This document shows, one piece after another, positions 3,336-30,939 of a stretch of DNA of 32,000 nucleotides. The translations under genes were made by a program, and so were the position numbers. How positions within the stretch are numbered: position 1 is the first letter of the stretch; each line of letters starts with the position of its first letter. Under the pieces are notes generated by a model, which saw only the letters and a program-made list of their open reading frames with translations, did not search any database and was not told the DNA's origin. This DNA comes from Microcystis aeruginosa NIES-843 (GTDB lineage: Bacteria > Cyanobacteriota > Cyanobacteriia > Cyanobacteriales > Microcystaceae), in contig NC_010296.1 in NCBI RefSeq assembly GCF_000010625.1, positions 5,250,001 to 5,282,000 of the forward strand. Direction: 5' to 3'.

Positions 3336-4823
3336 ATGATCACCGGCGAATTAAAATCCAAAATAGATAAACTTTGGACAACCTTCTGGAATAACGGCAT
3401 TAGTAACCCGCTTTCGGTAATCGAGCAGATTTCCTATTTACTCTTCATCAAGCGCCTAGATGACCTAGAACTGGCTAAGGAGCGTAGGGCCCAACGATTA
3501 GGCGAAAATCTCGAAAATCCCACCTTTACCCCCAGCCAACAGCATATCCGTTGGTCCCGCTTCAAAAATATCGATGATGCCGAGACAATGCTCCAGATTG
3601 TCCGGGATGAAGCGTTTCCCTTTATCAAAGATATGGGACAGTTTTCTAGGGGTAGCACCTACGCTAAACACATGAAGGACGCGGTGTTTCTCATCGCGTC
3701 TCCGGCGCTGCTGGGGACAGTAATCGAGCAAATTGAAAAAATCCCCATGGAGGATCGGGACACCAAAGGCGACCTTTACGAGTATATGCTCTCGAAACTG
3801 AGTACAGCCGGGACTAACGGACAGTTTCGCACGCCGCGCCATATTATCAAAATGATGGTGGAGTTATTAGCGCCGGGACCCCGGGAAGTTATCTGTGATC
3901 CGGCCTGTGGCACAGGAGGCTTTTTAGTAGCGGCTGCCGAGTATGTGCGGGAGTTAAAGGACAGCGAGGGGGGACGTTTGCTCCATGAACGCGGCAACCT
4001 AGAGCATTTCAATAACCAAATGTTCCACGGTTTTGATTTCGATGCCACGATGTTACGCATCGGCAGCATGAACCTGATGTTACACGGTATCGAGCAGCCG
4101 ATTATCGAGGCCCGGGATTCCCTATCGGAGGATCACGCCGGGGTAGAGGATAGTTTTACCATGATTCTGGCTAATCCACCGTTTAAGGGTTCGGTGGAGA
4201 AGTCCACTATTGCCAAGGATTTATCGAAAATCATCGACACCACTAAAACCGAGTTATTATTCATGGCCCTGTTTTTGCGCTTGCTGAAGACGGGGGGAAA
4301 AGGTGCGGTAATTGTGCCGGATGGGGTGCTATTTGGCTCGTCCAAGGCCCATAAGGACATCCGCACCATCTTGGTAGAAGAACATAAGCTAGAGGGGGTG
4401 ATATCGATGCCGTCGGGGGTGTTTAAACCTTACGCGGGGGTATCTACCGCAATCCTGATTTTTACGAAGCTGGGGGTAAGGGAAAAGGGGACTGACTTCG
4501 TTTGGTTTTATGACATGGTGGCGGATGGTTTCTCTCTCGATGATAAGCGCCAACCGATTGCCGATAATGATATCCCGGACTTGCTGCGCTGTTGGCAGCA
4601 ACGCGACTCCGCTAAGGATACCAACCGCCAAGGGAAGGCGTTTTTTGTGCCTCGCGAGGAGATTCAGGCCAATGCTTATGATCTATCAATTAACCGCTAT
4701 AAGGAGATAGAGTACGAGGAAGTGAGCTATGAGCCGCCGAAGGTGATTTTACAGAAGTTAAGGGCTTTAGAGGCTGATATTCGTCAGGATTTGGACGCAT
4801 TAGAGGAGATGTTAGGAGATTAG
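3336..4823 (+). CDS. hsdM: Type I restriction-modification system methyltransferase subunit (N6-adenine)
   Basis: HsdM_N-like N-terminus, AdoMet motif DPACGTGGF, catalytic motif ILANPPFKG. Followed by hsdS and hsdR on the same strand. Confidence 0.95.
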   Translation: MITGELKSKIDKLWTTFWNNGISNPLSVIEQISYLLFIKRLDDLELAKERRAQRLGENLENPTFTPSQQHIRWSRFKNIDDAETMLQIVRDEAFPFIKDMGQFSRGSTYAKHMKDAVFLIASPALLGTVIEQIEKIPMEDRDTKGDLYEYMLSKLSTAGTNGQFRTPRHIIKMMVELLAPGPREVICDPACGTGGFLVAAAEYVRELKDSEGGRLLHERGNLEHFNNQMFHGFDFDATMLRIGSMNLMLHGIEQPIIEARDSLSEDHAGVEDSFTMILANPPFKGSVEKSTIAKDLSKIIDTTKTELLFMALFLRLLKTGGKGAVIVPDGVLFGSSKAHKDIRTILVEEHKLEGVISMPSGVFKPYAGVSTAILIFTKLGVREKGTDFVWFYDMVADGFSLDDKRQPIADNDIPDLLRCWQQRDSAKDTNRQGKAFFVPREEIQANAYDLSINRYKEIEYEEVSYEPPKVILQKLRALEADIRQDLDALEEMLGD

Positions 4824-4826
4824 GAG

Positions 4827-5150
4827 ATGAAAAATCTACAGCTAGAGGTTATTCTGCGGGAGATAAAAGATTATTTCCATCTGCTCTATCAAAACCAATT
4901 ACAGAAAATCGTCCTTTACGGTTCCCAAGCACGGGAAGATGGACGGGAAGATTCTGATATCGATCTTTTGGTCATTCTTTCTGGTGTGGTGGATCCTTAT
5001 CAGGAAATTGACCGCACGAGTGAATTTATCGCTAGGCTTTGCCTTGATTATAATGTGGTTGTTTCCCGTCATTTTATCTCTGCGGCAAAGTTCCAGAGCG
5101 GAGATAATCCATTTCTTGACAATATACGGCGCGAAGGGGTTACGCTATGA
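4827..5150 (+). CDS. Nucleotidyltransferase-domain protein (MNT-type, antitoxin-like), no intact HEPN partner
   Basis: GSQAREDGREDSDIDLLV matches the minimal nucleotidyltransferase GS...D.D motif. Starts 3 nt after the hsdM stop. Its stop overlaps (ATGA) only a 21-codon ORF (5147-5212). Confidence 0.8.
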   Translation: MKNLQLEVILREIKDYFHLLYQNQLQKIVLYGSQAREDGREDSDIDLLVILSGVVDPYQEIDRTSEFIARLCLDYNVVVSRHFISAAKFQSGDNPFLDNIRREGVTL

Positions 5151-5177
5151 GCGATGATTGCATTGGTAGTTTTGCTC

Positions 5178-5230
5178 AACCGAAAGGATATTTGATTTAT
5201 GCTGAGAAATAAGATTTGTCGGCATTTAGA
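5178..5230 (+). repeat. Junction repeat R1 (AACCGAAAGGATATTTGATTTATG.TGA.AAATAAGATTTGTCGGCATTTAGA)
   Basis: Same unit recurs at 5373-5440, 5578-5621 (internally deleted) and 5937-6014. Its right half resembles the last ~30 nt of hsdM (4787-4815). Confidence 0.85.
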
Positions 5231-5242
5231 TTCCAAGAGAGT

Positions 5243-5269
5243 GGTGGGTTACGCTATCGCTAACCCACC
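5243..5269. repeat. Short palindromic repeat GGTGGGTTA-N9-TAACCCACC
   Basis: 9-bp perfect inverted arms. Related GGGTTA/TAACCC hairpins occur at 5301-5362, 5506-5567 and 30806-30870. Confidence 0.7.
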
Positions 5270-5282
5270 CTACCCATTGAAG

Positions 5283-5370
5283 GGAGAAGAGTTCATAGTA
5301 GGGTGGGTTAGACGGCAACAATCTAGGCGTTAAAGTCAATCTAACAATCCGTCGTAACCCACCGCTTTAG
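5283..5370. mobile_element. 88-bp MITE-like element, copy 1 (GAGAAGAGTTCATAGTAGGGTGGGTTAGACGG...CCGTCGTAACCCACCGCTTTAG)
   Basis: Identical by eye to 5488-5575. Long internal inverted repeat GGTGGGTTAGACGG / CCGTCGTAACCCACC. Confidence 0.8.
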
Positions 5371-5372
5371 TC

Positions 5373-5440
5373 CACCGAAAGGATATTTGATTTATGTTTG
5401 AAAATAAGATTTGTCGGCATTTAGAGGGGATGTGATGACT
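5373..5440 (+). repeat. Junction repeat R2, ending in GATGTGATGACT (first two codons of an MNT2-like gene, then broken by repeats)
   Basis: Matches R1 over ~53 nt. Matches the R3/MNT2 start (5591-5621) up to ATGACT, after which the similarity stops. Confidence 0.85.
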
Positions 5441-5487
5441 AGAATAGAAGCGCCATTCGATCCCCCCCAACCCCCCTTAAAAAGGGG

Positions 5488-5575
5488 GGAGAAGAGTTCA
5501 TAGTAGGGTGGGTTAGACGGCAACAATCTAGGCGTTAAAGTCAATCTAACAATCCGTCGTAACCCACCGCTTTAG
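5488..5575. mobile_element. 88-bp MITE-like element, copy 2
   Basis: Identical by eye to 5283-5370. Preceded by the hairpin CCCCCCTTAAAAAGGGGGG (5471-5489). Confidence 0.8.
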
Positions 5576-5577
5576 TT

Positions 5578-5621
5578 AACCGAAAGGATGTTTGTCGGTA
5601 TTTAGAGAGGATGTGATGACT
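5578..5621 (+). repeat. Junction repeat R3 (short form) leading into the MNT2 start codon
   Basis: AACCGAAAGGATG-TTTGTCGGTATTTAGAGAGGATGTGATGACT. Lacks the central ~26 nt of R1/R2. Confidence 0.8.
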
Positions 5622-5927
5622 GTAACGACAAAGCAACAGGTAATTAGTCTGCTAGAGCAAAATCAAGCCGAATTACGGCGATTGGGAGTTAGTCGCTGTG
5701 GTTTGTTCGGATCTTTTCGGACAGAGCAGACGACAGAGAAGAGCGATGTGGATATTTTGGTGGTGTTTCAACCCGGGATGAAGACATTTAATAATTTTAT
5801 GGATTTATGTTTCTTTTTGGAGGACTTGTTTGATCGGAGTGTGGATCTGGTTACACCTGAGTCGTTGAGTCCTTTTTTTGGACAACGAATTCTCGATGAG
5901 GTGGAATATGTCCCCTGTAGTTCGTGA
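5616..5927 (+). CDS. Nucleotidyltransferase-domain protein (second MNT-type gene, a different subfamily from 4827-5150), no HEPN/DUF86 partner
   Basis: GLFGSFRTEQTTEKSDVDILVVF plus VDLVTPESL. ATG at 5616 with GAGAGG upstream; the ORF-track start at 5592 is TTG. No partner ORF follows before hsdS. Confidence 0.8.
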   Translation: MTVTTKQQVISLLEQNQAELRRLGVSRCGLFGSFRTEQTTEKSDVDILVVFQPGMKTFNNFMDLCFFLEDLFDRSVDLVTPESLSPFFGQRILDEVEYVPCSS

Positions 5928-5936
5928 GTTTTAGTC

Positions 5937-6014
5937 AACCGAAAGGATGTTTGATTTATGTTTGAAAATAAGATTGATCTGGTTTTACGCGCGTTAAAGG
6001 AGATGTTGGGATGA
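5937..6014 (+). repeat. Junction repeat R4 plus an hsdM-3'-end-like relic that overlaps the hsdS start
   Basis: Left part matches R1/R2. The 18-codon ORF 5958-6014 (MFENKIDLVLRALKEMLG*) resembles the HsdM C-terminus (...DLDALEEMLGD*). It ends in an ATGA overlap with the hsdS ATG at 6011. Confidence 0.7.
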
Positions 6015-7198
6015 AGGATTGGCCATCTGTCGCACTAGGCGATATTTTTGAAATTGCTCGTGGTGGTTCGCCAAGACCGATTCAGAATTTTCTGACAGAA
6101 GAACCTGACGGTGTAAACTGGGTAATGATTGGTGATGCTTCGGATAGTTCAAAATACATTACACACACTAAAAAGCGCATTTTGAAGACTGGTGTTAAGA
6201 ATTCACGCATGGTCTATCCGGGTGATTTTTTACTTACGAATTCCATGAGCTTTGGCCACCCTTATATCATGAAAACATCTGGTTGTATTCATGATGGATG
6301 GCTTGTTTTAAGTAATAAAAAAGGTGTTATTGATCAAGATTATTTTTATCATCTACTAGGTTCTGATCTAATATATGCAGAGTTTTCCCGTCTTGCTTCT
6401 GGTTCAACTGTAAAGAACTTAAATATTGAGATAGTTAAAGGGATTAAGGTATCGCTCCCACCCCTCGAAGAACAGCGAAGAATTGCGGCAATTTTAGATA
6501 AAGCAGATGGGGTGCGACGCAAGCGCAAAGAGGCGATTCGGTTGACTGAGGAGTTGTTAAAATCGACTTTCCTAGAGATGTTCGGTGATCCTGTTACTAA
6601 TCCGAAAGGGTGGGAGGTGAAGCGTCTCGGTGAAATATGTACAAATTTTCAAAACGGAATAGGAAAAAATAGTGAACACTATGGTCATGGCTCTAAGGTT
6701 GCAAACATATCTGACTTGTACGAATGGCATCGTTTCATTCCAGAAAAGTATTCACTTCTCGACGTAACTCCAAAAGAGATTGAAAAATATAGTCTCATGA
6801 GAGGAGATCTGCTATTTGTACGTTCTTCAGTAAAGCGTGAAGGGGTTGCTGTATGTTCTGTTTATGATTCTGATGAGATTTGCCTTTTCAGTTCATTTAT
6901 GATCCGAGTCAGGCCGAGGACAGACCTGATTAATCCAGAGTTTTTATCTTTAATGCTTAGAACTCCACCGATGAGAAATAGACTGATTTTAGGTTCTAAC
7001 ACATCTACAATCACTAATATTTCACAGCCAGGATTATCCAAAATTGAGGTCGTTGTTCCTCCTATCAAGACACAAAATCTAATTACAAAAGTTACGAAAA
7101 ATATCGAAGAATCTGTTCGGTGTCATCTTCAGGCGCTTGAACAATCCGAAAATCTCTTTAATTCCCTTTTACAAAGAGCATTTAGGGGGGAACTGTAG
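6011..7198 (+). CDS. hsdS: Type I restriction-modification specificity subunit
   Basis: Two variable target-recognition halves separated by a conserved central helix (LPPLEEQRRIAAILDKADGVRRKRKEAIRLTEELLKSTFLEMFGDP). Conserved C-terminal helix (LFNSLLQRAFRGEL). Confidence 0.9.
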   Translation: MKDWPSVALGDIFEIARGGSPRPIQNFLTEEPDGVNWVMIGDASDSSKYITHTKKRILKTGVKNSRMVYPGDFLLTNSMSFGHPYIMKTSGCIHDGWLVLSNKKGVIDQDYFYHLLGSDLIYAEFSRLASGSTVKNLNIEIVKGIKVSLPPLEEQRRIAAILDKADGVRRKRKEAIRLTEELLKSTFLEMFGDPVTNPKGWEVKRLGEICTNFQNGIGKNSEHYGHGSKVANISDLYEWHRFIPEKYSLLDVTPKEIEKYSLMRGDLLFVRSSVKREGVAVCSVYDSDEICLFSSFMIRVRPRTDLINPEFLSLMLRTPPMRNRLILGSNTSTITNISQPGLSKIEVVVPPIKTQNLITKVTKNIEESVRCHLQALEQSENLFNSLLQRAFRGEL

Positions 7199-7418
7199 CC
7201 ATGGCAGCCGGCGGATTACTGCCATAATCTTGTGGGAAATGCCATTAAAAAAGACCGTTGGACAATTAACCAAGATTCCTATCATCTCACACTGTCACGC
7301 GGGAAAACCCTAGATAAAATAACCGAACTTGCTGTTTTTTTATATAACTGTTAAACAATAATCAGGTAAAATATAGAGATAGCCAAAACTTTGGGGATAA
7401 TAGACTGGGGAGCGCAAT

Positions 7419-10400
7419 ATGGACTCAAACTTCTCCTTCCTGCGAGATCAATTCCCGACAATCTACGATCATGCCAGCCAAGCGGAGGGATTAGTCTTCA
7501 GTAACCCCCGGGCCAGTTGCTTCTATACCCGTTTTGTCCTAGAACAAATGGTCTGCTGGCTCTATGAAAACGACCCCTACCTGCAACCGCCCCGGGACAA
7601 TAGCCTAGGCGCTCTCATCCACGAGCAAACCTTTAAAGATAACCTTAAACCTGGACTTTTCGGCAAAATTCGCACCATCCACAAAGTCGGCAACAACGCC
7701 GCCCACGATACCAGCCCCATCAGTGAACGGGACTCCCTGCACCTGATCGAGGAACTATTTCATCTCACCTACTGGCTGGTGCGCTACTATGGGCAGAATG
7801 GGCGAGAATTGGGCGATATTCGCTTCGATCGCCAGAAGATACCCCCGGCCGCACCCCCCGCTCCCAAACAACTGCAAGACCTGGAAAAACGCCTGTCCCA
7901 AAGCGATGCCCTGCGCCAATTGGCCGAAGCAAAACAGCGCCAAACCGAGGCCGAACTGGCAGCCGCTAGGGCCGAACGGGATGCCCTCCTCGCCCAAAAT
8001 CAAGCGATCGCTGACCGGCACGACTACAACGAAGCCGACACCCGCCGCTACCTGATCGATGTACTACTCCAAGAAGCCGGCTGGGATACCAAAGCCCCCA
8101 ACGCCACAGAGTTCGAGGTGTGGGGGATGCCCATCCAACAAGCGGGGGATACTGGGCGCGGTTTCGTCGATTATGTACTATGGGGCGACGACGGCAAACC
8201 CCTCGCCCTCGTGGAGGCAAAACGCAGCAGCAAAAGCCCCGACAGCGGCCAAAATCAGGCCAAACTCTACGCCGACTGCTTAGAAAAAGACTACAACCAA
8301 CGCCCCGTTATTTTCTACAGCAACGGCTATGAAACCTATCTCTGGGATGATCTCACCTATCCCCCCCGTCCCGTCCTCGGTTTCCTGCGAAAAACCGAGC
8401 TAGAACGGCTAATTTTCCGCCGTTCCCACCGTAAACGCCTCAGCAACACCGCCATTAACGAGGATATTGTCGGCCGTCCCTACCAGAAAGAGGCCATCCG
8501 CCGCATTACCGAAACCTTTGAAGAAAAGTGCGCCCGTAAGTCCCTGTTGGTTATGGCCACGGGAACCGGTAAAACCCGAACTGCGATCGCATTGGTGGAA
8601 CTGCTCAAGAGTGCCAATTGGGTAAACCGAGTCCTGTTTCTGGCCGATCGCAATGCCCTATTAAAGCAAGCCTATCGAGCCTTTCAGCGTCATCTACCCA
8701 GCGTTACCGTCCTGCATCTGACCCGCAGCAAGGACGTGACGGGGGCTAACGTCCTCTTCTCCACCTATCAAACCATGCTCAACGCCATCGATCGCATGGA
8801 TGCAGAGGGGCGAATCTTTGGGGTGGGTTATTTTGACCTAGTGATCGTCGATGAGGCCCATCGCTCCATTTATCAGAAATACGGCGAAATATTCGATTAT
8901 TTCGATGCCCTGCTGGTGGGGCTAACTGCCACGCCGCGCTCGGAAATAGACCGGGACACCTACCGCATTTTCCAGCTACCCCAGGGCGTGCCTACCTTCG
9001 CCTACGAGTTAAATGATGCCGTTAGGGATGGCCACCTCGTCCCCCCCAAGGGCGTTACTGTGCCGTTTAAGTTTCTGCGTACTGGGGTTAAATACAGTGA
9101 GCTAACCCCACAGGAGCGGCTAGACTACGAGGAGAAGTTCCGGGACGAGGAAAGCGGCGAACTACCGCAGGCAATTAACGCAGCTGCCTTTAATGACTGG
9201 TTGTTCAATATCGACACCGTGGATCAAGCATTAGAATTATTGATGCAACGGGGGCTAAAGGTCAACAGTGGCGATCGATTGGGTAAAACGATTATTTTTG
9301 CCCGTAATCACCGACACGCCCAATGTATCTGCGATCGCTTTAACAGTAACTATCCTCACTACAAAGGTCATTTCGCCAAAATTATTGACAGTCACGACAA
9401 TTACGCCCAGAGTCTGCTCGATGACTTCAGCGAAGCCAACAAAGAACCGATTTTGGCCGTCTCGGTGGATATGCTCGATACCGGCGTAGATGTGCCGGAA
9501 GTGGTCAATTTGGTGTTTTTTAAGCCCGTATTCTCCCGGGTGAAGTTCAATCAGATGATCGGGCGCGGGACCCGTCTCTGTCAGGATTTGTTTGGGACTG
9601 GCAACCATAAAACCGAGTTTCTGGTCTTTGACCTCTGCGGGAATTTCGAGTATTTCGAGCAGGATATCGATGAAACAAGCCAGAAAATACCCGAAAGCCT
9701 CACCAGTCGCCTAGTTAAACATCGCCTCGAGTTGGCAACCCGCCTCGCTCCCTCCAAGCCAAGCGCGACACCTAGGGCAAGAGAGCAGTCCTCTACTTAC
9801 AAAGTCGAGCGGGCCGGCGACCTATACACGAGTTTGCTCGATGCACTCCATCAACACATCGCCACCATGCCCCGGGATAATTTCCTCGTGCGTCGTCGCT
9901 TGCCGCAGGTGGAGACCTTTAGTCAGCGTCAGCGTTGGAACAACCTGAGTCAGGAGGACGCGGCCACCATTGCCGACTGCTTGGCCGGTTTACCCAATAG
10001 TCTGCCCAATGAGGATCCCCTGGCCAAGGAATTCGACCTTCTCTGCGTGAAACTGCAATTAGCCATTCTCAAGGCCGACCGTAGTTATGAGCGATTGCGG
10101 GACAAAGTGCGGGATATTCTCGGTCAACTGGAGACTAAGCCCGATATCCCGATGATTAAGGGACAATTGGCCTTTATTCGCGAGGTGCAGGACGAAAGCT
10201 GGTGGACCGGCGCAACGCCGTCAATGGTGGAGGGGATTCGGGTGCGTGTCCGGGATCTGGTCAAGTTTATTGATCGCCAAAAGCAGCAGATCGTGATCAC
10301 CGATTTTGTCGATGAGATGGGGGAGGTGCAGATTGTCGATATTCCCACCCATCAGACCGGTTTTAGTCGCGAACAGTATCGCCGGAAAGTGGAGGCCTAT

Positions 10401-10865
10401 ATCCGTCAGCATCAGGATCACCTTGCGATCGCTAAGTTGCGGCGCAATCTCCCCCTAACGGAGACGGATTTATCTGCCCTAGAGGAGATGCTATTTTCGG
10501 CCGCAGAAATTGAGAGCCGTCAGCGTTTTGAGGAGGTTTTTGGCCAGACAAAAAGCCTCAAGCTCCTGATCCTGGAAATCGTCGGACTTGATCCCGCAGG
10601 GATCCGCGTAGCGGCACGCCAGGCGGCTAAACAAGCTTTTGCCCGTTATTTGCAGGGGACAAACTTCTCGGCCAATCAAATCCGTTTTATCGAAAATATC
10701 ATCGATATGCTCGCTAAAAACGGAGTTATCAATCCGGGGGCGCTCTACGAGCCTCCTTTTACTGATAACCATCCCGAAGGGCTAGATGGGATGTTTAATG
10801 ATGGGGAAGCTGATCGGATCGTCTCGATTTTGCGATCGTTTAATGAGTCCGTTGATGCGGTCTAA
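7419..10865 (+). CDS. hsdR: Type I restriction enzyme R subunit with an N-terminal DUF4145-like domain and a coiled-coil extension
   Basis: PD-(D/E)XK nuclease motif (GFVDYVLW...LVEAKRS). Helicase motifs I MATGTGKT, II VIVDEAHRS, III GLTATP. EcoEI-R-like C-terminal region. 1148 aa. Confidence 0.95.
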   Translation: MDSNFSFLRDQFPTIYDHASQAEGLVFSNPRASCFYTRFVLEQMVCWLYENDPYLQPPRDNSLGALIHEQTFKDNLKPGLFGKIRTIHKVGNNAAHDTSPISERDSLHLIEELFHLTYWLVRYYGQNGRELGDIRFDRQKIPPAAPPAPKQLQDLEKRLSQSDALRQLAEAKQRQTEAELAAARAERDALLAQNQAIADRHDYNEADTRRYLIDVLLQEAGWDTKAPNATEFEVWGMPIQQAGDTGRGFVDYVLWGDDGKPLALVEAKRSSKSPDSGQNQAKLYADCLEKDYNQRPVIFYSNGYETYLWDDLTYPPRPVLGFLRKTELERLIFRRSHRKRLSNTAINEDIVGRPYQKEAIRRITETFEEKCARKSLLVMATGTGKTRTAIALVELLKSANWVNRVLFLADRNALLKQAYRAFQRHLPSVTVLHLTRSKDVTGANVLFSTYQTMLNAIDRMDAEGRIFGVGYFDLVIVDEAHRSIYQKYGEIFDYFDALLVGLTATPRSEIDRDTYRIFQLPQGVPTFAYELNDAVRDGHLVPPKGVTVPFKFLRTGVKYSELTPQERLDYEEKFRDEESGELPQAINAAAFNDWLFNIDTVDQALELLMQRGLKVNSGDRLGKTIIFARNHRHAQCICDRFNSNYPHYKGHFAKIIDSHDNYAQSLLDDFSEANKEPILAVSVDMLDTGVDVPEVVNLVFFKPVFSRVKFNQMIGRGTRLCQDLFGTGNHKTEFLVFDLCGNFEYFEQDIDETSQKIPESLTSRLVKHRLELATRLAPSKPSATPRAREQSSTYKVERAGDLYTSLLDALHQHIATMPRDNFLVRRRLPQVETFSQRQRWNNLSQEDAATIADCLAGLPNSLPNEDPLAKEFDLLCVKLQLAILKADRSYERLRDKVRDILGQLETKPDIPMIKGQLAFIREVQDESWWTGATPSMVEGIRVRVRDLVKFIDRQKQQIVITDFVDEMGEVQIVDIPTHQTGFSREQYRRKVEAYIRQHQDHLAIAKLRRNLPLTETDLSALEEMLFSAAEIESRQRFEEVFGQTKSLKLLILEIVGLDPAGIRVAARQAAKQAFARYLQGTNFSANQIRFIENIIDMLAKNGVINPGALYEPPFTDNHPEGLDGMFNDGEADRIVSILRSFNESVDAV

Positions 10866-10890
10866 GAGTAAGCGCGGATGAAGAAATAAA
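10839..10890 (+). repeat. 52-bp direct repeat, copy A (covers the last 8 codons and stop of hsdR plus 25 nt)
   Basis: TTTAATGAGTCCGTTGATGCGGTCTAAGAGTAAGCGCGGATGAAGAAATAAA. Matches 16680-16731 at 50 of 52 positions. Confidence 0.95.
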
Positions 10891-10893
10891 AGC

Positions 10894-11772
10894 ATGAAAA
10901 CTGACACGATTTTTTATCAACTCTTTCAATCATTCCCCTCTATCTTCTTTGAATTAATTCAACTCCCTATCAGCGAAGCGAATAACTACCGCTTTGACTC
11001 AGTGGAAGTCAAACAACTTTCCTTTCGTCTTGATGGAGTCTTTCTGCCTCAAAATAATCACCCCCAGACTCCTATCTACTTCTGTGAGGTACAATTTCAA
11101 GAAGATGAGGCTTTTTATCAGCGCTTTTTCACCGAAATATTCTTATATCTCAGTAAAACTGACTTAACCAATGATTGGCGGGGTGTGATTGTCTATCCTA
11201 ACCCTCAAGTAGAAACCGATAAAGTTCAACGCTATCGGGAACTTCTCAACTCCGAGCGAGTGAGACGGATTTATCTGAATGAATTAGAAAACATTCCTCA
11301 AACTTCGATTGGTTTAGCTACAGTCCAATTAATCACCCTATCTAAAGCAAAAGCGATTGATAGCACCCGAAAATTAATCCAAAGAGTGCGGCAAGAATTA
11401 ACCCCCGACCAAAAACCGCAAGAACTCTTACAATTAATAGAGACGATTCTCGTTTATAAGTTACCGCTTCTCAATCGTCGGGAGATAGAAACTATGTTTA
11501 GTTTAGATGAATTAAAACAGACTCAGTATTTTCAAGATGTGCGCGAAGAAGCGCGTCAGGAAGGTCGTCAGGAAGGCATTGAGCAAGGCATTGAGCAAGG
11601 CATTGAGCAAGGCATTGAGCAAGGCATTGAGCAAGGTATTGAGCAAGGCAGACTAAACAAAGCACTAGAGGCGGTCCCTCGTTTGTTAGCCTTAGGGTTA
11701 AGTGTTGAGCAAGTCGCATCCGCGTTAGAGTTAGAGGTTGAACAGGTTAGAGCTATACAAAACGGGACATAA
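10894..11772 (+). CDS. Rpn (YhgA-like)/DUF2887-type PD-(D/E)XK recombination-promoting nuclease/putative transposase family protein, tandem copy 1 (292 aa, 6 GIEQ repeats)
   Basis: N-terminus MKTDTIFYQLFQ, a putative nuclease core (RLDGVF...IYFCEVQFQ) and a C-terminal helix-rich tail after a QEGR/GIEQ linker. Family assignment is by pattern recognition only. Starts 28 nt after the hsdR stop. Confidence 0.75.
   Translation: MKTDTIFYQLFQSFPSIFFELIQLPISEANNYRFDSVEVKQLSFRLDGVFLPQNNHPQTPIYFCEVQFQEDEAFYQRFFTEIFLYLSKTDLTNDWRGVIVYPNPQVETDKVQRYRELLNSERVRRIYLNELENIPQTSIGLATVQLITLSKAKAIDSTRKLIQRVRQELTPDQKPQELLQLIETILVYKLPLLNRREIETMFSLDELKQTQYFQDVREEARQEGRQEGIEQGIEQGIEQGIEQGIEQGIEQGRLNKALEAVPRLLALGLSVEQVASALELEVEQVRAIQNGT
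11575..11646 (+). repeat. In-frame 12-bp tandem repeat GGCATTGAGCAA x6 (encodes GIEQ)
   Basis: Six contiguous units; the last one reads GGTATTGAGCAA. Confidence 0.95.
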
Positions 11773-11835
11773 AAAAATGTGATCGCCTTGTGAAATAAAA
11801 GCATGAAAACTGACACGATTTTTTATCAACTCTTT

Positions 11836-13053
11836 AGACCTCTTGCATAATTTTTTTATGGTATAATATAAGGTTTTGCTTTTTTCTCAATTCTTAGATT
11901 GAAGTGGAAAAAAGAATAAAATGTGATCTTAGGTCAGGAAATCATCTATAATTTTGCTATGTTTATTAGCAAAATTATGGATTATCAAAACTTATCAGAT
12001 GAACAATTCAAACGCCGTTTCGGTGTGTATAAACAAACCTATAGAAAGATGGTAGAATCAGTAAAAAGTGTTGAAGCCGACTCTAATTCACCATCTAAAA
12101 GGGGACCGAAACCTAAACTATCTATAGAAGAACAAGTTTTAGTAACGTTAGAATATTGGCGAGAATATAGAACATATTTTCACATTGGTACAAGCTGGGA
12201 ACTATCAGAATCAACTATATGTCGGATTGTAAATAAGACGGAAAAAATGCTTTTACAATCGGGAAACTTCCGTTTAAAAGGAAAAAAAGCTTTACTCAAT
12301 CAAGCAGAGATACCGGTCATAACGGTAATGGATGTAACGGAAACTCCCATTGAACGCCCCCAAAAGAAACAGAAAGATTTTTTTTCGGGTAAAAGAGGTT
12401 ATCATACTTTAAAATCCCAATTAGTAGCTGATCAAAATACAAAGGAAATTATCTGTGTCTTTTGTGGGAAAGGTAGAGGTCATGATTTTAGTTTATTTAA
12501 AAAAAGTCGAGTTCGTTTTCATCCTTTAACTACCAGCATAGAAGACAGTGGTTATCAGGGAATAGCTGCATACCATAGTAATAGTTATACACCGAAAAAG
12601 AAATCGAAAAATAGAAAATTAACAGAGTTAGAAAAAGAGTATAACAAGGCTTTAGCCAAAGAAAGGATTATCATTGAACATATAAATAGGAAACTCAAAA
12701 TCTTTAAAATCTTATCCTGTAAATATCGGAATCGTCGTCGAAGATATAGTTTAAGAGTTAACTTGTTGGCGGCTATTTATAACTGTGAGTTAGGGATAGG
12801 TATAGCAGCTTCTTAAAAGTTGCCTAAAGATTAATCAAGTCAAGGAGAATTTATTCTCAATTTTTATAATTGAGATAGTTTGTGCCGCTTAAATAAAGAG
12901 GTTTTGATAACCAAATTAAAGCAGCTCTAAAGAGTTTTGAGTTAAAAGTTAAACTTCAAGTTTTCATTCAGGACAAATGTACTGATTAACTAATTTTTTG
13001 GGGAAAATTAGTTAACCCATCATTATAACATATAATTAATTTGCAAGAGTTCT
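11836..13053 (+). mobile_element. Insertion sequence (~1218 bp), IS5/Harbinger-like DDE family
   Basis: Imperfect terminal inverted repeats AGACCTCTTGCATAAT... / ...ATTTGCAAGAGTTCT. Flanked by duplicated TTT (11833-11835 and 13054-13056). Single transposase ORF. AT-rich. Confidence 0.85.
11977..12816 (+). CDS. IS5/Harbinger-like DDE transposase (HTH plus DDE_Tnp_4-like domain)
   Basis: Candidate DDE residues in MDVTETPIERP, IEDSGYQGI and RIIIEHINRKLKIFKIL. N-terminal HTH region (RGPKPKLSIEEQVLVTLEYWREYRTY). ATG at 11977 is preferred over the GTG at 11923. Confidence 0.85.
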   Translation: MDYQNLSDEQFKRRFGVYKQTYRKMVESVKSVEADSNSPSKRGPKPKLSIEEQVLVTLEYWREYRTYFHIGTSWELSESTICRIVNKTEKMLLQSGNFRLKGKKALLNQAEIPVITVMDVTETPIERPQKKQKDFFSGKRGYHTLKSQLVADQNTKEIICVFCGKGRGHDFSLFKKSRVRFHPLTTSIEDSGYQGIAAYHSNSYTPKKKSKNRKLTELEKEYNKALAKERIIIEHINRKLKIFKILSCKYRNRRRRYSLRVNLLAAIYNCELGIGIAAS

Positions 13054-13848
13054 TTTCAATCTTTCCCCTCTATCTTCTTTGAATTAATTCAACTCCCTAT
13101 CAGCGAAGCGAATAACTACCGCTTTGACTCAGTGGAAGTCAAACAACTTTCCTTTCGTCTTGATGGAGTCTTTCTGCCTCAAAATAATCACCCCCAGACT
13201 CCTATCTACTTCTGTGAGGTACAATTTCAAGAAGATGAGGCTTTTTATCAGCGCTTTTTCACCGAAATATTCTTATATCTCAGTAAAACTGACTTAACCA
13301 ATGATTGGCGGGGTGTGATTGTCTATCCTAACCCTCAAGTAGAAACCGATAAAGTTCAACGCTATCGGGAACTTCTCAACTCCGAGCGAGTGAGACGGAT
13401 TTATCTGAATGAATTAGAAAACATTCCTCAAACTTCGATTGGTTTAGCTACAGTCCAATTAATCACCCTATCTAAAGCAAAAGCGATTGATAGCACCCGA
13501 AAATTAATCCAAAGAGTGCGGCAAGAATTAACCCCCGACCAAAAACCGCAAGAACTCTTACAATTAATAGAGACGATTCTCGTTTATAAGTTACCGCTTC
13601 TCAATCGTCGGGAGATAGAAACTATGTTTAGTTTAGATGAATTAAAACAGACTCAGTATTTTCAAGATGTGTGCGAAGAAGCGCGTCAGGAAGGCAGACT
13701 AAACAAAGCACTAGAGGCGGTCCCTCGTTTGTTAGCCTTAGGGTTAAGTGTTGAGCAAGTCGCATCCGCGTTAGAGTTAGAGGTTGAACAGGTTAGAGCT
13801 ATACAAAACGGGACATAAAAAAATGCGATCGCCTTGTGAAATAAAAGC

Positions 13849-14667
13849 ATGAAAACTGACACGATTTTTTATCAACTCTTTCAATCTTTCCCCTCTATCT
13901 TCTTTGAATTAATTCAACTCCCTATCAGCGAAGCGAATAACTACCGCTTTGACTCAGTGGAAGTCAAACAACTTTCCTTTCGTCTTGATGGAGTCTTTCT
14001 GCCTCAAAATAATCACCCCCAGACTCCTATCTACTTCTGTGAGGTACAATTTCAAGAAGATGAGGCTTTTTATCAGCGCTTTTTCACCGAAATATTCTTA
14101 TATCTCAGTAAAACTGACTTAACCAATGATTGGCGGGGTGTGATTGTCTATCCTAACCCTCAAGTAGAAACCGATAAAGTTCAACGCTATCGGGAACTTC
14201 TCAACTCCGAGCGAGTGAGACGGATTTATCTGAATGAATTAGAAAACATTCCTCAAACTTCGATTGGTTTAGCTACAGTCCAATTAATCACCCTATCTAA
14301 AGCAAAAGCGATTGATAGCACCCGAAAATTAATCCAAAGAGTGCGGCAAGAATTAACCCCCGACCAAAAACCGCAAGAACTCTTACAATTAATAGAGACG
14401 ATTCTCGTTTATAAGTTACCGCTTCTCAATCGTCGGGAGATAGAAACTATGTTTAGTTTAGATGAATTAAAACAAACTCAGTATTTTCAAGATGTGCGCG
14501 AGGAAGCGCGTCAGGAAGGTCGCGAGGAAGGTCGTCAGGAAGGCAGACTAAACAAAGCACTAGAGGCTGTCCCTCGTTTGTTAGCCTTAGGGTTAAGTGT
14601 TGAGCAAGTCGCATCCGCGTTAGAGTTAGAGGTTGAACAGGTTAGAGCTATACAAAACGGGACATAA
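13849..14667 (+). CDS. Rpn/DUF2887-type nuclease, tandem copy 3 (272 aa, 0 GIEQ, one extra EGRE/EGRQ unit)
   Basis: Near-identical to copy 1 outside the linker, which reads QEGREEGRQEGRLNK. Confidence 0.75.
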   Translation: MKTDTIFYQLFQSFPSIFFELIQLPISEANNYRFDSVEVKQLSFRLDGVFLPQNNHPQTPIYFCEVQFQEDEAFYQRFFTEIFLYLSKTDLTNDWRGVIVYPNPQVETDKVQRYRELLNSERVRRIYLNELENIPQTSIGLATVQLITLSKAKAIDSTRKLIQRVRQELTPDQKPQELLQLIETILVYKLPLLNRREIETMFSLDELKQTQYFQDVREEARQEGREEGRQEGRLNKALEAVPRLLALGLSVEQVASALELEVEQVRAIQNGT

Positions 14668-14697
14668 AAAAATGCGATCGCCTTGTGAAATAAAAGC

Positions 14698-15564
14698 ATG
14701 AAAACTGACACGATTTTTTATCAACTCTTTCAATCTTTCCCCTCTATCTTCTTTGAATTAATTCAACTCCCTATCAGCGAAGCGAATAACTACCGCTTTG
14801 ACTCAGTGGAAGTCAAACAACTTTCCTTTCGTCTTGATGGAGTCTTTCTGCCTCAAAATAATCACCCCCAGACTCCTATCTACTTCTGTGAGGTACAATT
14901 TCAAGAAGATGAGGCTTTTTATCAGCGCTTTTTCACCGAAATATTCTTATATCTCAGTAAAACTGACTTAACCAATGATTGGCGGGGTGTGATTGTCTAT
15001 CCTAACCCTCAAGTAGAAACCGATAAAGTTCAACGCTATCGGGAACTTCTCAACTCCGAGCGAGTGAGACGGATTTATCTGAATGAATTAGAAAACATTC
15101 CTCAAACTTCGATTGGTTTAGCTACAGTCCAATTAATCACCCTATCTAAAGCAAAAGCGATTGATAGCACCCGAAAATTAATCCAAAGAGTGCGGCAAGA
15201 ATTAACCCCCGACCAAAAACCGCAAGAACTCTTACAATTAATAGAGACGATTCTCGTTTATAAGTTACCGCTTCTCAATCGTCGGGAGATAGAAACTATG
15301 TTTAGTTTAGATGAATTAAAACAAACTCAGTATTTTCAAGATGTGCGCGAAGAAGCGCGTCAGGAAGGTCGCGAGGAAGGCATTGAGCAAGGCATTGAGC
15401 AAGGCATTGAGCAAGGCATTGAGCAAGGTATTGAGCAAGGCAGACTAAACAAAGCATTAGAGGCGGTCCCTCGTTTGTTAGCCTTAGGGTTAAGTGTTGA
15501 GCAAGTCGCATCCGCGTTAGAGTTAGAGGTTAAACAGGTTAGAGCTATACAAAACGGGACATAA
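14698..15564 (+). CDS. Rpn/DUF2887-type nuclease, tandem copy 4 (288 aa, 5 GIEQ)
   Basis: Near-identical to copy 1. The 30-nt spacer upstream contains a HIP1 site (GCGATCGC). Confidence 0.75.
   Translation: MKTDTIFYQLFQSFPSIFFELIQLPISEANNYRFDSVEVKQLSFRLDGVFLPQNNHPQTPIYFCEVQFQEDEAFYQRFFTEIFLYLSKTDLTNDWRGVIVYPNPQVETDKVQRYRELLNSERVRRIYLNELENIPQTSIGLATVQLITLSKAKAIDSTRKLIQRVRQELTPDQKPQELLQLIETILVYKLPLLNRREIETMFSLDELKQTQYFQDVREEARQEGREEGIEQGIEQGIEQGIEQGIEQGRLNKALEAVPRLLALGLSVEQVASALELEVKQVRAIQNGT
15379..15438 (+). repeat. In-frame 12-bp tandem repeat GGCATTGAGCAA x5
   Basis: Five contiguous units inside copy 4. Confidence 0.95.
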
Positions 15565-15594
15565 AAAAATGTGATCGCCTTGTAAAATAAAAGC

Positions 15595-16437
15595 ATGAAA
15601 ACTGACACGATTTTTTATCAACTCTTTCAATCATTCCCCTCTATCTTCTTTGAATTAATTCAACTCCCTATCAGCGAAGCGAATAACTACCGCTTTGACT
15701 CAGTGGAAGTCAAACAACTTTCTTTTCGTCTTGATGGAGTCTTTCTGCCTCAAAATAATCACCCCCAGACTCCTATCTACTTCTGTGAGGTACAATTTCA
15801 AGAAGATGAGGCTTTTTATCAGCGCTTTTTCACTGAAATATTCTTATATCTCAGTAAAACTGACTTAACCAATGATTGGCGGGGTGTGATTGTCTATCCT
15901 AACCCTCAAGTAGAAACCGATAAAGTTCAACGCTATCGGGAACTTCTCAACTCCGAGCGAGTGAGACGGATTTATCTGAATGAATTAGAAAACATTCCTC
16001 AAACTTCGATTGGTTTAGCTACAGTCCAATTAATCACCCTATCTAAAGCAAAAGCGATTGATAGCACCCGAAAATTAATCCAAAGAGTGCGGCAAGAATT
16101 AACCCCCGACCAAAAACCGCAAGAACTCTTACAATTAATAGAGACGATTCTCGTTTATAAGTTACCGCTTCTCAATCGTCGGGAGATAGAAACTATGTTT
16201 AGTTTAGATGAATTAAAACAAACTCAGTATTTTCAAGATGTGCGCGAAGAAGCGCGTCAGGAAGGTCGCGAGGAAGGCATTGAGCAAGGCATTGAGCAAG
16301 GCATTGAGCAAGGCAGACTAAACAAAGCACTAGAGGCTGTCCCTCGTTTGTTAGCCTTAGGGTTAAGCGTTGAGCAAGTCGCATCTGCGTTAGAGTTAGA
16401 GGTTAAACAGGTTAGAGCTATACAAAACGGGACATAA
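15595..16437 (+). CDS. Rpn/DUF2887-type nuclease, tandem copy 5 (280 aa, 3 GIEQ)
   Basis: Near-identical to copy 1. Last unit of the array, followed by a ~240-nt unique tail. Confidence 0.75.
   Translation: MKTDTIFYQLFQSFPSIFFELIQLPISEANNYRFDSVEVKQLSFRLDGVFLPQNNHPQTPIYFCEVQFQEDEAFYQRFFTEIFLYLSKTDLTNDWRGVIVYPNPQVETDKVQRYRELLNSERVRRIYLNELENIPQTSIGLATVQLITLSKAKAIDSTRKLIQRVRQELTPDQKPQELLQLIETILVYKLPLLNRREIETMFSLDELKQTQYFQDVREEARQEGREEGIEQGIEQGIEQGRLNKALEAVPRLLALGLSVEQVASALELEVKQVRAIQNGT
16276..16311 (+). repeat. In-frame 12-bp tandem repeat GGCATTGAGCAA x3
   Basis: Three contiguous units inside copy 5. Confidence 0.95.
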
Positions 16438-16679
16438 TCTCCTTATGTCCTCATGTCTAGGATGTCCTGTTATACTAAATCCTGTTTGATTTGATTGATT
16501 CAAGCTAATGTTATGGCTAATACTGGGAAAAGTTAAGATTTATACCCCATAGATGAGCGATTAAAAGCAATAATCTCCGCCATTCTACCCCCCCGAATTT
16601 GTCAAGTATTCTCCGTTTTTTATTGATGAATACGGAAAAAGCCCATCAGGGAGAGACTGGAAGGGTTAGAAAGTTGAGA

Positions 16680-16731
16680 TTTAACGAGTCCGTTGATGCG
16701 GTCTAAGAGCAAGCGCGGATGAAGAAATAAA
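16680..16731 (+). repeat. 52-bp direct repeat, copy B (relic of the hsdR 3' end; overlaps the real 3' end of tauE on the minus strand)
   Basis: TTTAACGAGTCCGTTGATGCGGTCTAAGAGCAAGCGCGGATGAAGAAATAAA. It still reads FNESVDAV* in the hsdR sense. The tauE stop (CTA, 16703-16705) lies inside it. Confidence 0.95.
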
Positions 16732-17461
16732 TGGCCATCAGTAGCAGAAAAATATAAAAAGTAATCCGCACCAATCGATCCGGTAATTTCGGTAAAAAAC
16801 GAGTGGTTACTTGTACACCTAGGGAACCACCGATACCTAAAATAATCCCTTGTAGATAAAGAATATGACCGGCTTGGGCATGAGCGAAACAGGCGGCGAT
16901 CGAATTGAGTAAAACCACACCTAAACTGGTGACAATGGCGATTTTGATCTTTTCTGCCAAAAAAATCATTTGTAGTGGCACCATGATCGCCCCACCGCCA
17001 ATTCCGAAAATACCGGCTAGAAATCCAGCGATTCCTCCGGTTAGCAGACAGGCTAGATTAGGATGCAATCTAATGGCAGAAACTGACTCTTTTTGGCTTA
17101 AATTTTGCTTGAGATTGGTTAAATAGATATTGAGCAGTAAAAAACAACCAAAAGCCGCTTCTAGGAGGTGTTTGGGGCTATATTTGACCAGATAGACCCC
17201 GATAAATGCCGTAAAAATCCCGGGTAAACCTAAGAGGAGAACTCGCTGCCATTTCAGGGAACCTAATCGCCAATTTTGGATCGTACCCCCTAGGGAAGTG
17301 AAAACGATCGCTAAACTGCTGGTAGCCACCGATTCCCCGTAACTGTAGCCCAAATTTAACAGGATCGCCACGGAGATAGTGCCACCCCCAATACCGAATA
17401 AACCCGCTAATAAGCCCGAAAAAACGCCTGTTATCAGTAAAATCAAGTAATTGTCTGCCAT
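16703..17461 (-). CDS. TauE/SafE family sulfite-exporter-like membrane protein
   Basis: 252 aa, multi-TM, with duplicated GLFGIGGG / GIFGIGGGAIMVP motifs typical of the family. Confidence 0.85.
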   Translation of the reverse strand: MADNYLILLITGVFSGLLAGLFGIGGGTISVAILLNLGYSYGESVATSSLAIVFTSLGGTIQNWRLGSLKWQRVLLLGLPGIFTAFIGVYLVKYSPKHLLEAAFGCFLLLNIYLTNLKQNLSQKESVSAIRLHPNLACLLTGGIAGFLAGIFGIGGGAIMVPLQMIFLAEKIKIAIVTSLGVVLLNSIAACFAHAQAGHILYLQGIILGIGGSLGVQVTTRFLPKLPDRLVRITFYIFLLLMAIYFFIRACS

Positions 17462-22927: not shown

Positions 22928-22957
22928 CTAGTTTTTTTATTGAGTATTTTCAGTTAA

Positions 22958-23020
22958 CTGATAACTGATAACTGATAACTGATAACTGATAACTGATAAC
23001 TGATAACTGATAACTGACAC
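22958..23020 (+). repeat. Heptamer tandem repeat CTGATAA x8 plus one degenerate unit
   Basis: Eight perfect contiguous units at 22958-23013, then CTGACAC. Lies between the 144-aa ORF stop and the cobQ start. Confidence 0.95.
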
Positions 23021-30805: not shown

Positions 30806-30870
30806 GTAGGATGGGTTAGCGGTAGCGTAACCCATGCGGGCGTTGGGTTTCATGCTTCAACCCAACCTAC
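30806..30870. mobile_element. 65-bp palindromic MITE-like element (GTAGGATGGGTT...AACCCAACCTAC)
   Basis: 12-bp terminal inverted repeats (11 of 12 match). Two internal GGGTT/AACCC hairpins. Related to the 5243-5269 and 5298-5362 repeats. Confidence 0.7.
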
Positions 30871-30939
30871 TGATCACTGATTACTGATAACTGATCACTG
30901 ATTACTGATGACTGATTACTGATGACTGATTACTGATGA
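30870..30939 (+). repeat. Heptamer tandem repeat CTGATNA x10
   Basis: Ten contiguous units. Only position 6 varies (C,T,A,C,T,G,T,G,T,G). Same unit and orientation as 22958-23020. Lies just 3' of adk. Confidence 0.95.

Follow-up and report, generated by a model that had tools for sequence, protein, structure and literature searches.

The rpn genes are genes within genes: the full-length product, RpnL, is a toxic DNA endonuclease, and the internally started RpnS binds RpnL and blocks it (PMC10400941). The two proteins share a C-terminal domain whose long first helix carries repeats of four amino acids (dodecamers in the DNA), in a number that varies between strains; only an RpnS with an equal number of repeats blocks its RpnL, as was shown by insertion of a KGIE unit in RpnC (PMC10400941). 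The genes are enriched in defence islands, a plasmid-encoded Rpn protects against phages, and rpn gene arrays are described as the result of tandem direct duplication (PMC10400941). According to a commentary, the variation in repeat number among multiple copies will prevent inhibition in trans, insulating the paralogs from one another (PMC10400984). The proteins of E. coli and C. difficile are the only ones for which RpnS production and neutralisation have been demonstrated (PMC10400941). Here we describe five tandem genes of the DUF2887 branch of this family, located downstream of the type I restriction-modification (R-M) gene hsdR in Microcystis aeruginosa NIES-843; all positions refer to a stretch of 32,000 nt (NC_010296.1, 5,250,001 to 5,282,000, forward strand), hereafter called the window.

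We consider it probable that the five genes form an array of toxin-antitoxin or anti-phage modules of the Rpn family (DUF2887 subfamily). Each gene would give rise to a full-length, RpnL-like nuclease of the PD-(D/E)XK type and to a small, C-terminal RpnS-like protein, and the latter would dimerise with the same domain of the full-length protein and thereby keep the nuclease inactive. The 12-nt repeats would lengthen the long first helix of the shared C-terminal domain, and the copies, with 8, 1, 3, 7 and 5 units, would by analogy with E. coli be mutually insulated modules and not extra dosage; since repeat number sets the pairing of RpnL and RpnS in E. coli, this is the simplest functional reading. 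Family membership, the catalytic residues, the signature of an internal start, the modelled C-terminal fold and the polymorphism in copies and repeats are all based on the analysis presented here.

Five tandem genes between hsdR and tauE

The array, as seen both in the list of open reading frames (ORFs) and in the raw sequence, consists of five head-to-tail DUF2887/Rpn units, all on the plus strand between hsdR and tauE; an insertion sequence (IS) interrupts copy 2, and the other four genes are intact. The hsdR stop codon lies at 10865 and copy 1 starts at 10894, leaving a gap of 28 nt, and the four spacers between the copies are all exactly 30 nt long, with only two variable positions. In both respects the raw sequence agrees with an initial annotation of this DNA, including the spacer sequence given there. 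The same annotation had described five units of 825-910 bp, which is right as to their number and common strand, but copy 2 falls outside that size range, split as it is by 1,218 bp of inserted DNA.

The copies carry different numbers of four-amino-acid units, counted here between 'EEA' and 'RLNK' and listed in the direction from hsdR to tauE. Copy 1 (10894-11772, 292 aa) has eight units (RQEG twice, IEQG six times), copy 3 (13849-14667, 272 aa) has three (RQEG REEG RQEG) and no GIEQ, copy 4 (14698-15564, 288 aa) has seven (RQEG REEG, IEQG five times) and copy 5 (15595-16437, 280 aa) has five (RQEG REEG, IEQG three times); these four are intact. Copy 2, which together with its IS spans 11803-13818, comprises a 5' fragment of the first 11 codons (11803-11835), in which it agrees with the other copies at every position (100% identity), and a 3' part (13054-13818) with a single RQEG unit and an R-to-C change before the repeat. 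Tandem Repeats Finder detected the tracts, in which the 12-nt unit is repeated perfectly as many as 6.5 times, and GIEQ (GGCATTGAGCAA) occurs 6, 0, 0, 5 and 3 times in copies 1 to 5; the recount coincides with the earlier figures, as does the additional EGRE/EGRQ unit in copy 3. The copy 3 protein has an exact counterpart at this locus in M. viridis NIES-102, and copy 5, which adjoins tauE, is conserved in nearly all strains. Outside the repeat tract, differences between the copies number 0-4 over the 648 nt of the 5' part and 1-5 over the 129 nt of the 3' tail. The tracts, at 1-8 units, have thus evolved far more rapidly than the other 777 nt compared, where only 2-9 positions differ. The initial view of near-identical copies distinguished mainly by an in-frame 12-bp repeat is correct. 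An Rfam search of the window found no RNA family.

The element in copy 2 is an IS5-family insertion sequence of 1,218 bp (11836-13053, plus strand), inserted after codon 11. Its transposase ORF (11989-12816) matches NF033581 (IS5 family) with 203.9 bits, along with the Pfam families DDE_Tnp_4, DDE_Tnp_1 and HTH_Tnp_4; the terminal inverted repeats (AGAcCTCTTGCA and AGAaCTCTTGCA) are 12 bp long with 11 of 12 positions matching, and the target duplication is a 3-bp TTT at 11833-11835 and 13054-13056. Excision of the element in silico yields an intact copy 2 ORF of 264 aa, and it is missing from the same locus in the other strains compared. As its precise removal restores the ORF, the interruption of copy 2 is recent.

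Family membership and catalytic core

The initial annotation had expected a match to the Rpn/DUF2887 families, and this is what profile searches gave. The copy 1 protein matches PF11103 (DUF2887) with E = 4.5e-84 (281.9 bits), residues 3-202 aligning to positions 1-200 of the 200 in the profile, and it scores 153.5 bits with the Rpn-family model TIGR01784, for which the cutoff is 52.1 and E. coli RpnA scores 160.9. Close homologs carry the NCBI name 'Rpn family recombination-promoting nuclease/putative transposase'. Residue conservation was assessed in a set of 97 homologs with identities down to 53%: D47 and E65 are present in all 97 and Q67 in 96, corresponding to a D…E-x-Q variant of the PD-(D/E)XK motif with a spacing of D-18-ExQ, compared to D63-19-E82xQ84 in RpnA. 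The E-x-Q variant, a long helix and a C-terminal helix-turn-helix were already described for DUF2887/YhgA in 2010 (PMC3045609). An AlphaFold2 model of full-length copy 5 (58 sequences; mean predicted local distance difference test, pLDDT, 80.6) is consistent with this architecture, with an alpha/beta N-domain of high pLDDT, a long helix at 211-254 that would hold the repeats, and two short helices.

Alignment of the family to the E. coli RpnA sequence with hhalign covered only the C-terminal tail (RpnA residues 250-290, E = 0.01), so that the nuclease domains are tied to RpnA via TIGR01784 only. Searches of PDB sequences with phmmer and with profiles brought up no Rpn protein and matched, in the tail, only a designed helix-turn-helix repeat and SIRV1 ORF55; an exact-protein look-up of copy 1 returned no match. 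PADLOC, which is without an Rpn model, gave a weak 'putative invertase' match to the tail, and the repeat region weakly matches FliH models, whose cutoffs it misses by a wide margin (E = 5e-9 to 6e-7).

Several homologs (P0053, P0060, P0062 and P0070) are annotated as 'flagellar assembly protein H' in public databases. The labels are misannotations, which stem from the weak match of a repeat helix with glycine at every fourth residue to the FliH models.

A predicted internal start and a predicted small C-terminal protein

Met201 is invariant in the 97 homologs. A regular expression built around the motif at this methionine had 76 distinct matches in the fetched loci and the window, of which 73 are family members. 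All 73 have GGAG or GAGG 9-10 nt upstream of Met201, and the three remaining matches, which do not have the motif, are not members. Of the 73 family sequences, 70 use GAG for the glutamate at position -4, whereas GAG accounts for 292 of the 1,145 other glutamate codons of these genes (25.5%; odds ratio 68, Fisher p = 2e-35), and the ribosome-binding motif is retained even where the preceding amino acid differs. Such a constraint on synonymous sites ahead of Met201 is as predicted for a conserved internal ribosome-binding site. The layout of the internal start in E. coli rpnA (aagGAGagtttaATG) matches that of the array genes, and mutation of the internal-start positions in E. coli rpnA abolishes RpnAS (PMC10400941). 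In copy 1 the GGGAG motif is at 11480-11484, the Met201 ATG at 11494 and the 12-nt repeat tract at 11573-11650; the internal ATG is at 13624 in copy 2, where it is intact, and at 14449, 15298 and 16195 in copies 3, 4 and 5. The repeats begin 17-18 residues after Met201, within the 8-20 residues after the RpnS methionine given as a rule for Rpn proteins (PMC10400941).

From this signature, each gene most likely also encodes a small RpnS-like C-terminal protein of 64-92 aa that starts at Met201. When modelled, the 64-aa copy 2 product (pLDDT 72.5) forms a long helix, with the repeats lying in helix 11-38, followed by a helix-turn-helix. Its top-probability Foldseek match was 7TH0, the E. coli RpnA-S structure (probability 0.94, target-normalised TM-score 0.80), with a root-mean-square deviation of 1.4 A over 44 alignment columns and 30% identity. 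The modelled fold is thus supportive of an RpnS-like domain, if inconclusive. The initial annotation had taken the repeat for a passive linker between the nuclease domain and the tail; this view is not upheld, as the repeat is located within the long first helix of a C-terminal domain that has the sequence signature of an RpnS antitoxin.

The locus in other Microcystis strains

The exact TauE protein is found in the chromosomes AP019314.1 (M. viridis NIES-102), CP191409.1 and CP086723.1, and in many contigs from bloom metagenomes. Compared to 8, 1 (IS-split), 3, 7 and 5 units per copy in the window, GCA_003389435.1 (locus L104) has copies of 1, 7 and 5 units, NIES-102 of 3 and 5, CP191409 of 2, 1 (with a small non-coding insert of ~195 bp that resembles a miniature inverted-repeat transposable element, MITE) and 5, CP086723 of 2, 2, 1 and 5 in a rearranged array, the metagenome contig L096 of 2 and 5, and the contig L007 a single copy of 5. 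The copies at the locus thus number 1, 2, 3, 3, at least 4 and 5 across strains and contigs, and a junction scan of metagenome contigs added seven more, with alleles of 2, 4, 5, 6 and 10 units. The polymorphism across strains that the initial annotation had anticipated therefore exists, spanning 1-5 copies and alleles of 1-10 units. All Microcystis arrays at this locus have the identical 30-nt junction. Among 11 contigs of diverse strain and sample origin, the tauE-proximal copy has five units in all but one. Intact copies within one Microcystis array never share a unit number (the rearranged CP086723 array is taken up below); these arrays are related by descent, and the distinct unit numbers are given as an observation to which no statistical test is attached.

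As all junctions consist of the same 30 nt, here and in the other strains, we suggest that a single ancestral duplication, of a unit extending from ~30 nt before the ATG to exactly the stop codon, founded the array, and that unequal homologous recombination subsequently added and removed copies. Tandem same-strand pairs or arrays of family members are present in 6 of 80 loci fetched from other genomes. An unrelated paralogous pair in another Microcystis strain (L012) has 1 versus 8 EGRQ units and three other amino-acid changes in the shared regions, which, like the distinct unit numbers within arrays, accords with insulated modules. A further array, in a Sphaerospermopsis metagenome-assembled genome (L014, 9755-12045), has at least three tandem family copies and an assembly gap, and adjoins a gene for a 1,431-aa WD40-repeat protein.

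The initial annotation had treated the array as an appendage of the type I R-M operon. The two do adjoin each other, but a functional tie does not follow: in L007 and L096 a PEP-CTERM gene and a repeated element stand on the left in place of hsdR, and the array persists in NIES-102, where hsdR is fragmented, in CP086723, where it is split by an IS605-type element, and in L104, where it has an insert of ~350 bp. The position after hsdR would reflect clustering in a defence island and not a functional operon.

In the strains other than that of the window, hsdR and internal rpn copies have been struck by small inserts and by IS605/TnpB or IS630-type elements (L104, ~1700-2060; L001, ~12573-12761; L002, 16364-17407; L011, 5293-9969), and the R-M system is decaying in several strains in which the array is retained.

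Direct repeats flanking the array

A 52-bp direct repeat brackets the array and the non-coding tail that follows it. The left copy (10839-10890, plus strand) takes in the final 24 coding nt of hsdR, its stop codon and a further 25 nt, and ends 3 nt before the ATG of copy 1; the right copy (16680-16731, plus strand) overlaps the 3' end of the minus-strand gene tauE. The two are identical at 50 of 52 nt. The repeat holds the 3' ends of hsdR and, on the other strand, of tauE, with the two stop codons overlapping inside it, and because these 52 bp are duplicated, both genes are intact beside the array. At the left junction of NIES-102 and L104 the repeat is represented by its first 36 nt only, fused at AGCGCG to the upstream sequence seen in L007, which has no R-M genes.

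We looked for similar repeats at 65 family loci from other cyanobacteria, scoring direct repeats of at least 55 bits that bracket the gene within 1 kb on each side. Seven loci have them (L012, L032, L042, L067, L068, L084 and L085; lengths 36-224 nt), compared to 5 of 2,269 control intervals of the same length in the same loci (0.22%; binomial p = 1.6e-10, a rough value since the control positions overlap). Three of the seven (L085, L067 and L068) owe their repeats to what is left of former tandem copies; in L012, L032 and L084 the repeats (189, 40 and 47 nt) contain the end of a neighbouring host gene, as in the window. Look-ups of the exact tauE and DAGK products found no empty-site allele in which hsdR would abut tauE, and every contig that continues past tauE has the tail of 243 bp.

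Comparison with described systems

The closest counterparts of the array genes are E. coli RpnA-E and the plasmid-borne RpnP2, with which they have in common a similar TIGR01784 score, the D…E-x-Q motif, the layout of an internal ribosome-binding site and methionine ahead of a long helix, strain-variable four-amino-acid repeats with one hydrophobic residue among charged residues and glycine (KGIE in RpnC; QGIE and RQEG in the array), a defence-island neighbourhood and, going by the model, perhaps a three-helix C-terminal domain resembling a helix-turn-helix, with 7TH0 as top-probability match. They differ in that the array belongs to the cyanobacterial DUF2887 branch (PF11103) and not to PF04754, with only the tail aligning directly to RpnA, in the distance of 17-18 residues from the internal start to the repeats, and in the size of the small product, which is 49 aa for RpnAS and a predicted 64-92 aa for the array genes.

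The arrangement was at first thought to be undescribed. This is not so: Zhong et al. 2023 (PMC10400941) already have tandem arrays, strain-variable dodecamer repeats and enrichment in defence islands. The arrays they describe are likewise head-to-tail with one constant junction and no target duplication between copies, and their copies likewise differ in repeat number, which the commentary predicts will stop inhibition in trans (PMC10400984). The Microcystis array differs in that it can be traced from strain to strain, with 1-5 copies, 1-10 units and one constant distal copy. The published rpn genes are also reported to lack target-site duplications (PMC10400941), whereas the Microcystis array is bracketed by the 52-bp direct repeat.

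A further parallel, cited as an analogy in the same study (PMC10400941), is with the TAEL repeats in the HsdS proteins of EcoR124I and EcoR124II, which are likewise in-frame 12-nt (four-amino-acid) helix repeats whose number alters spacing and thereby specificity. In these HsdS proteins the repeat sets the spacing of two DNA half-sites; in the array it would instead set the register of the helix interface between RpnL and RpnS, and the hsdS of the window is not involved. The GxxxG-type helices of FliH/YscL are similar in having a helical repeat of variable length with glycine at every fourth residue, but there is no homology outside this low-complexity helix; Microcystis is, to our knowledge, without a flagellum. 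The E-helix of gamma-delta resolvase and other serine recombinases is similar in being a long helix followed by a small helix-turn-helix (Foldseek 2r0q and 1gdt, and the PADLOC 'putative invertase'), a likeness noted for DUF2887 in 2010 (PMC3045609). Its catalytic domain is unrelated, however, the array protein being a PD-(D/E)XK protein and not a serine recombinase.

Alternative explanations

A number of results weigh against the interpretation of the array as insulated Rpn modules. All functions are carried over from the Rpn proteins of E. coli and plasmids, whose alignment to the array proteins is confined to the family hidden Markov model and the C-terminal tail, and it is from those Rpn proteins that we infer toxicity, antitoxin action, insulation between copies and phage defence. 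With the full-length model Foldseek found weak matches (E = 0.05 or worse), all of them PD-(D/E)XK nucleases, and the 7TH0 match of the C-terminal model has E = 1.2, which is not significant for a small domain, with other small helix-turn-helix domains scoring similarly. A scan of the array for promoters and terminators gave no signal above chance and no plus-strand terminator, and co-transcription with hsdR is neither supported nor excluded by it. Two copies in the rearranged CP086723 array both have two units, and two of the L014 Sphaerospermopsis copies are identical. Copy 2 of the window is split by its IS, and in CP191409 and CP086723 a MITE-like insert or frameshifts have broken internal copies, so that the extra copies may be dispensable.

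This last point leads to the main rival explanation, namely neutral or decaying amplification of a recombination-prone gene, with its internal 12-nt repeat, by unequal crossing-over, in which the multiplicity of copies and their repeat differences would have no selected function and the extra copies would be in the process of being lost. The IS in copy 2, the ~195-bp MITE-like insert in the middle copy of CP191409 and the fragmented copies of CP086723 fit this well, as do the range of 1-5 copies at a locus where the tauE-proximal copy alone is constant, and the decayed remnants of upstream family genes in other cyanobacteria (L085, L067, L068). We nevertheless think it rather improbable. Four copies keep full ORFs together with every catalytic and internal-start feature, the intact copies of each Microcystis array all have different repeat numbers, and in E. 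coli experiments it is the repeat number that counts; tandem pairs have also turned up independently elsewhere in the family. IS and MITE-like elements abound in Microcystis genomes, and hsdR itself has been struck in three strains, so that a single IS is uninformative about selection. The initial annotation had offered gene dosage, a library of length variants and a slippage-driven contingency locus as possible functions; of these, the length-variant library comes nearest to known biology, and the contingency locus is not borne out. Under the latter, phase-variable view, the GIEQ tract would change length often within a clone and thus switch or tune the protein, and perfect 12-nt repeats of up to 6.5 copies and the many tract lengths in the population are what one would expect of it. 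On/off switching is impossible, however, because the 12-nt unit lies within the ORF and all tract lengths keep the frame; the five units in 10 of 11 tauE-proximal copies point to change on the timescale of strain divergence and not of a culture; and the distinct unit types (RQEG, REEG, REQG, IEQG) argue for recombination between alleles over simple slippage, suggesting that allele recombination as well as slippage may shape the tracts. We therefore hold a contingency locus to be very unlikely.

We give equally little credence to the view that the Rpn gene, as a 'putative transposase', was inserted repeatedly or as a cassette, with the 52-bp repeat as its target-site duplication. The repeat does bracket the array and tail with 50 of 52 matches, flanking repeats occur at 7 of 65 loci against 0.22% of controls, and those of L012, L032 and L084 contain the end of a host gene, as a duplicated target would. 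But the same 30-nt junctions without duplication between the copies speak for tandem duplication and not repeated insertion, no inverted repeats were found bracketing a unit or the whole array, and the left junction varies between strains (36 or 52 nt). The flanking repeats elsewhere range from 36 to 224 nt at variable distance from the gene, and three of the seven are old remnants of tandem copies. We also know of no autonomous PD-(D/E)XK transposase. Zhong et al. found no evidence of transposition (PMC10400941). An assembly artefact, in which repeat mis-assembly expanded one gene or fewer genes than five, is the least credible explanation of all. The region is indeed hard to assemble, since short-read contigs that contain the exact hsdR end 3-47 nt past its stop codon, i.e. 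at the start of the array. However, each copy has a unique linker allele and its own pattern of single-nucleotide differences, an IS with its target duplication sits in one of them, two to four or more copies are present in the chromosome-sized assemblies of other strains, and a metagenome contig (L099) covers two inter-copy junctions. The tandem copies are thus real, while the exact count of five in this strain is that of the assembly.

Returning to the array of Rpn modules, we can speculate on two linked ideas that we regard as possible but doubtful: rpn units may enter new sites duplicatively, copying a variable length of the target (~36-190 nt) that in many cases includes the end of an adjacent gene, and the array may be kept as a set of RpnL/RpnS pairs that do not cross-react. 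The first draws on the 52-bp repeat of the window, with its overlapping hsdR and tauE ends, and on the repeats of L012, L032 and L084; retention as non-cross-reacting pairs would explain why no two intact copies share a repeat number. If duplicative entry is true, both neighbouring genes would stay intact, the published absence of target duplications at rpn genes would be contradicted, and the mechanism of insertion might even be initiated by the Rpn nuclease itself.

Neighbouring genes and other features of the window

The type I R-M operon upstream of the array (3336-10865, plus strand) consists of hsdM (3336-4823), hsdS (6011-7198) and hsdR (7419-10865), with Pfam matches to N6_Mtase/HsdM_N, NTP_transf_2, Methylase_S and ResIII/EcoEI_R_C; PADLOC reported REase_I (595.8 bits) and PDC-S09. 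Between hsdM and hsdS lie two plus-strand genes for MNT-like nucleotidyltransferases (4827-5150 and 5592-5927), which are the PDC-S09 genes of PADLOC; no ORF for HEPN, the usual partner domain, was found beside them. The gap between the two (5199-5544) holds two copies of a short repeated element, each encoding 'MTLTPRLLPSNPPYYELFS' on the minus strand.

Downstream, the array is followed by a non-coding tail of about 243 bp (16438-16679, plus strand) and by tauE (16703-17461, minus strand), which encodes a membrane protein of the tauE/safE family (PF01925, E = 1.4e-47) and is the conserved right-hand anchor of the locus. The tail contains an element of ~180 bp (…CCCCCCCGAATTTGTCAAGTATTCTCCGTTTTTTATTGATGAA…), of which a version with 84% identity precedes the gene in the R-M-less contigs (L007, 4021-4204; the start of L096); it may be a dispersed Microcystis repeat. 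Further along the window there are perfect or near-perfect intergenic tandem repeats of heptamers, TAACTGA nine times at 22955-23017 and TACTGAT ten times at 30868-30937, and an ORF of 744 aa (28081-30315), perhaps another restriction-modification-type gene of fused structure, which matches N6_N4_Mtase/D12-class methyltransferases and has one stretch with a weak likeness to HSDR_N.

Conclusions

The arrangement of rpn genes in arrays was first described in 2023, and the Microcystis locus is a clear further example of it. What is new is that copy number (1-5) and repeat number (1-10 units) vary at a single locus across Microcystis strains, that the intact copies of an array all have different repeat numbers, that the array is also found without the R-M genes, and that it is flanked by a 52-bp repeat, similar repeats being enriched around family members elsewhere. 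For genome annotation, our results mean that these genes should be called neither transposases nor FliH, and that their tandem copies should be taken as real.

On the strength of the synonymous-site signal for an internal start, the gene-within-gene model of Rpn toxin-antitoxin systems would extend to the large cyanobacterial DUF2887 branch, which has hundreds of copies in bloom-forming and filamentous cyanobacteria. The locus offers one chromosomal site at which to trace the size of an array and the number of its repeats through natural Microcystis strains, and its five natural alleles bear on the questions raised by Zhong et al. and the commentary, i.e. how the dodecamer repeats expand, whether paralogs are insulated from each other, and whether the phages targeted differ from copy to copy.

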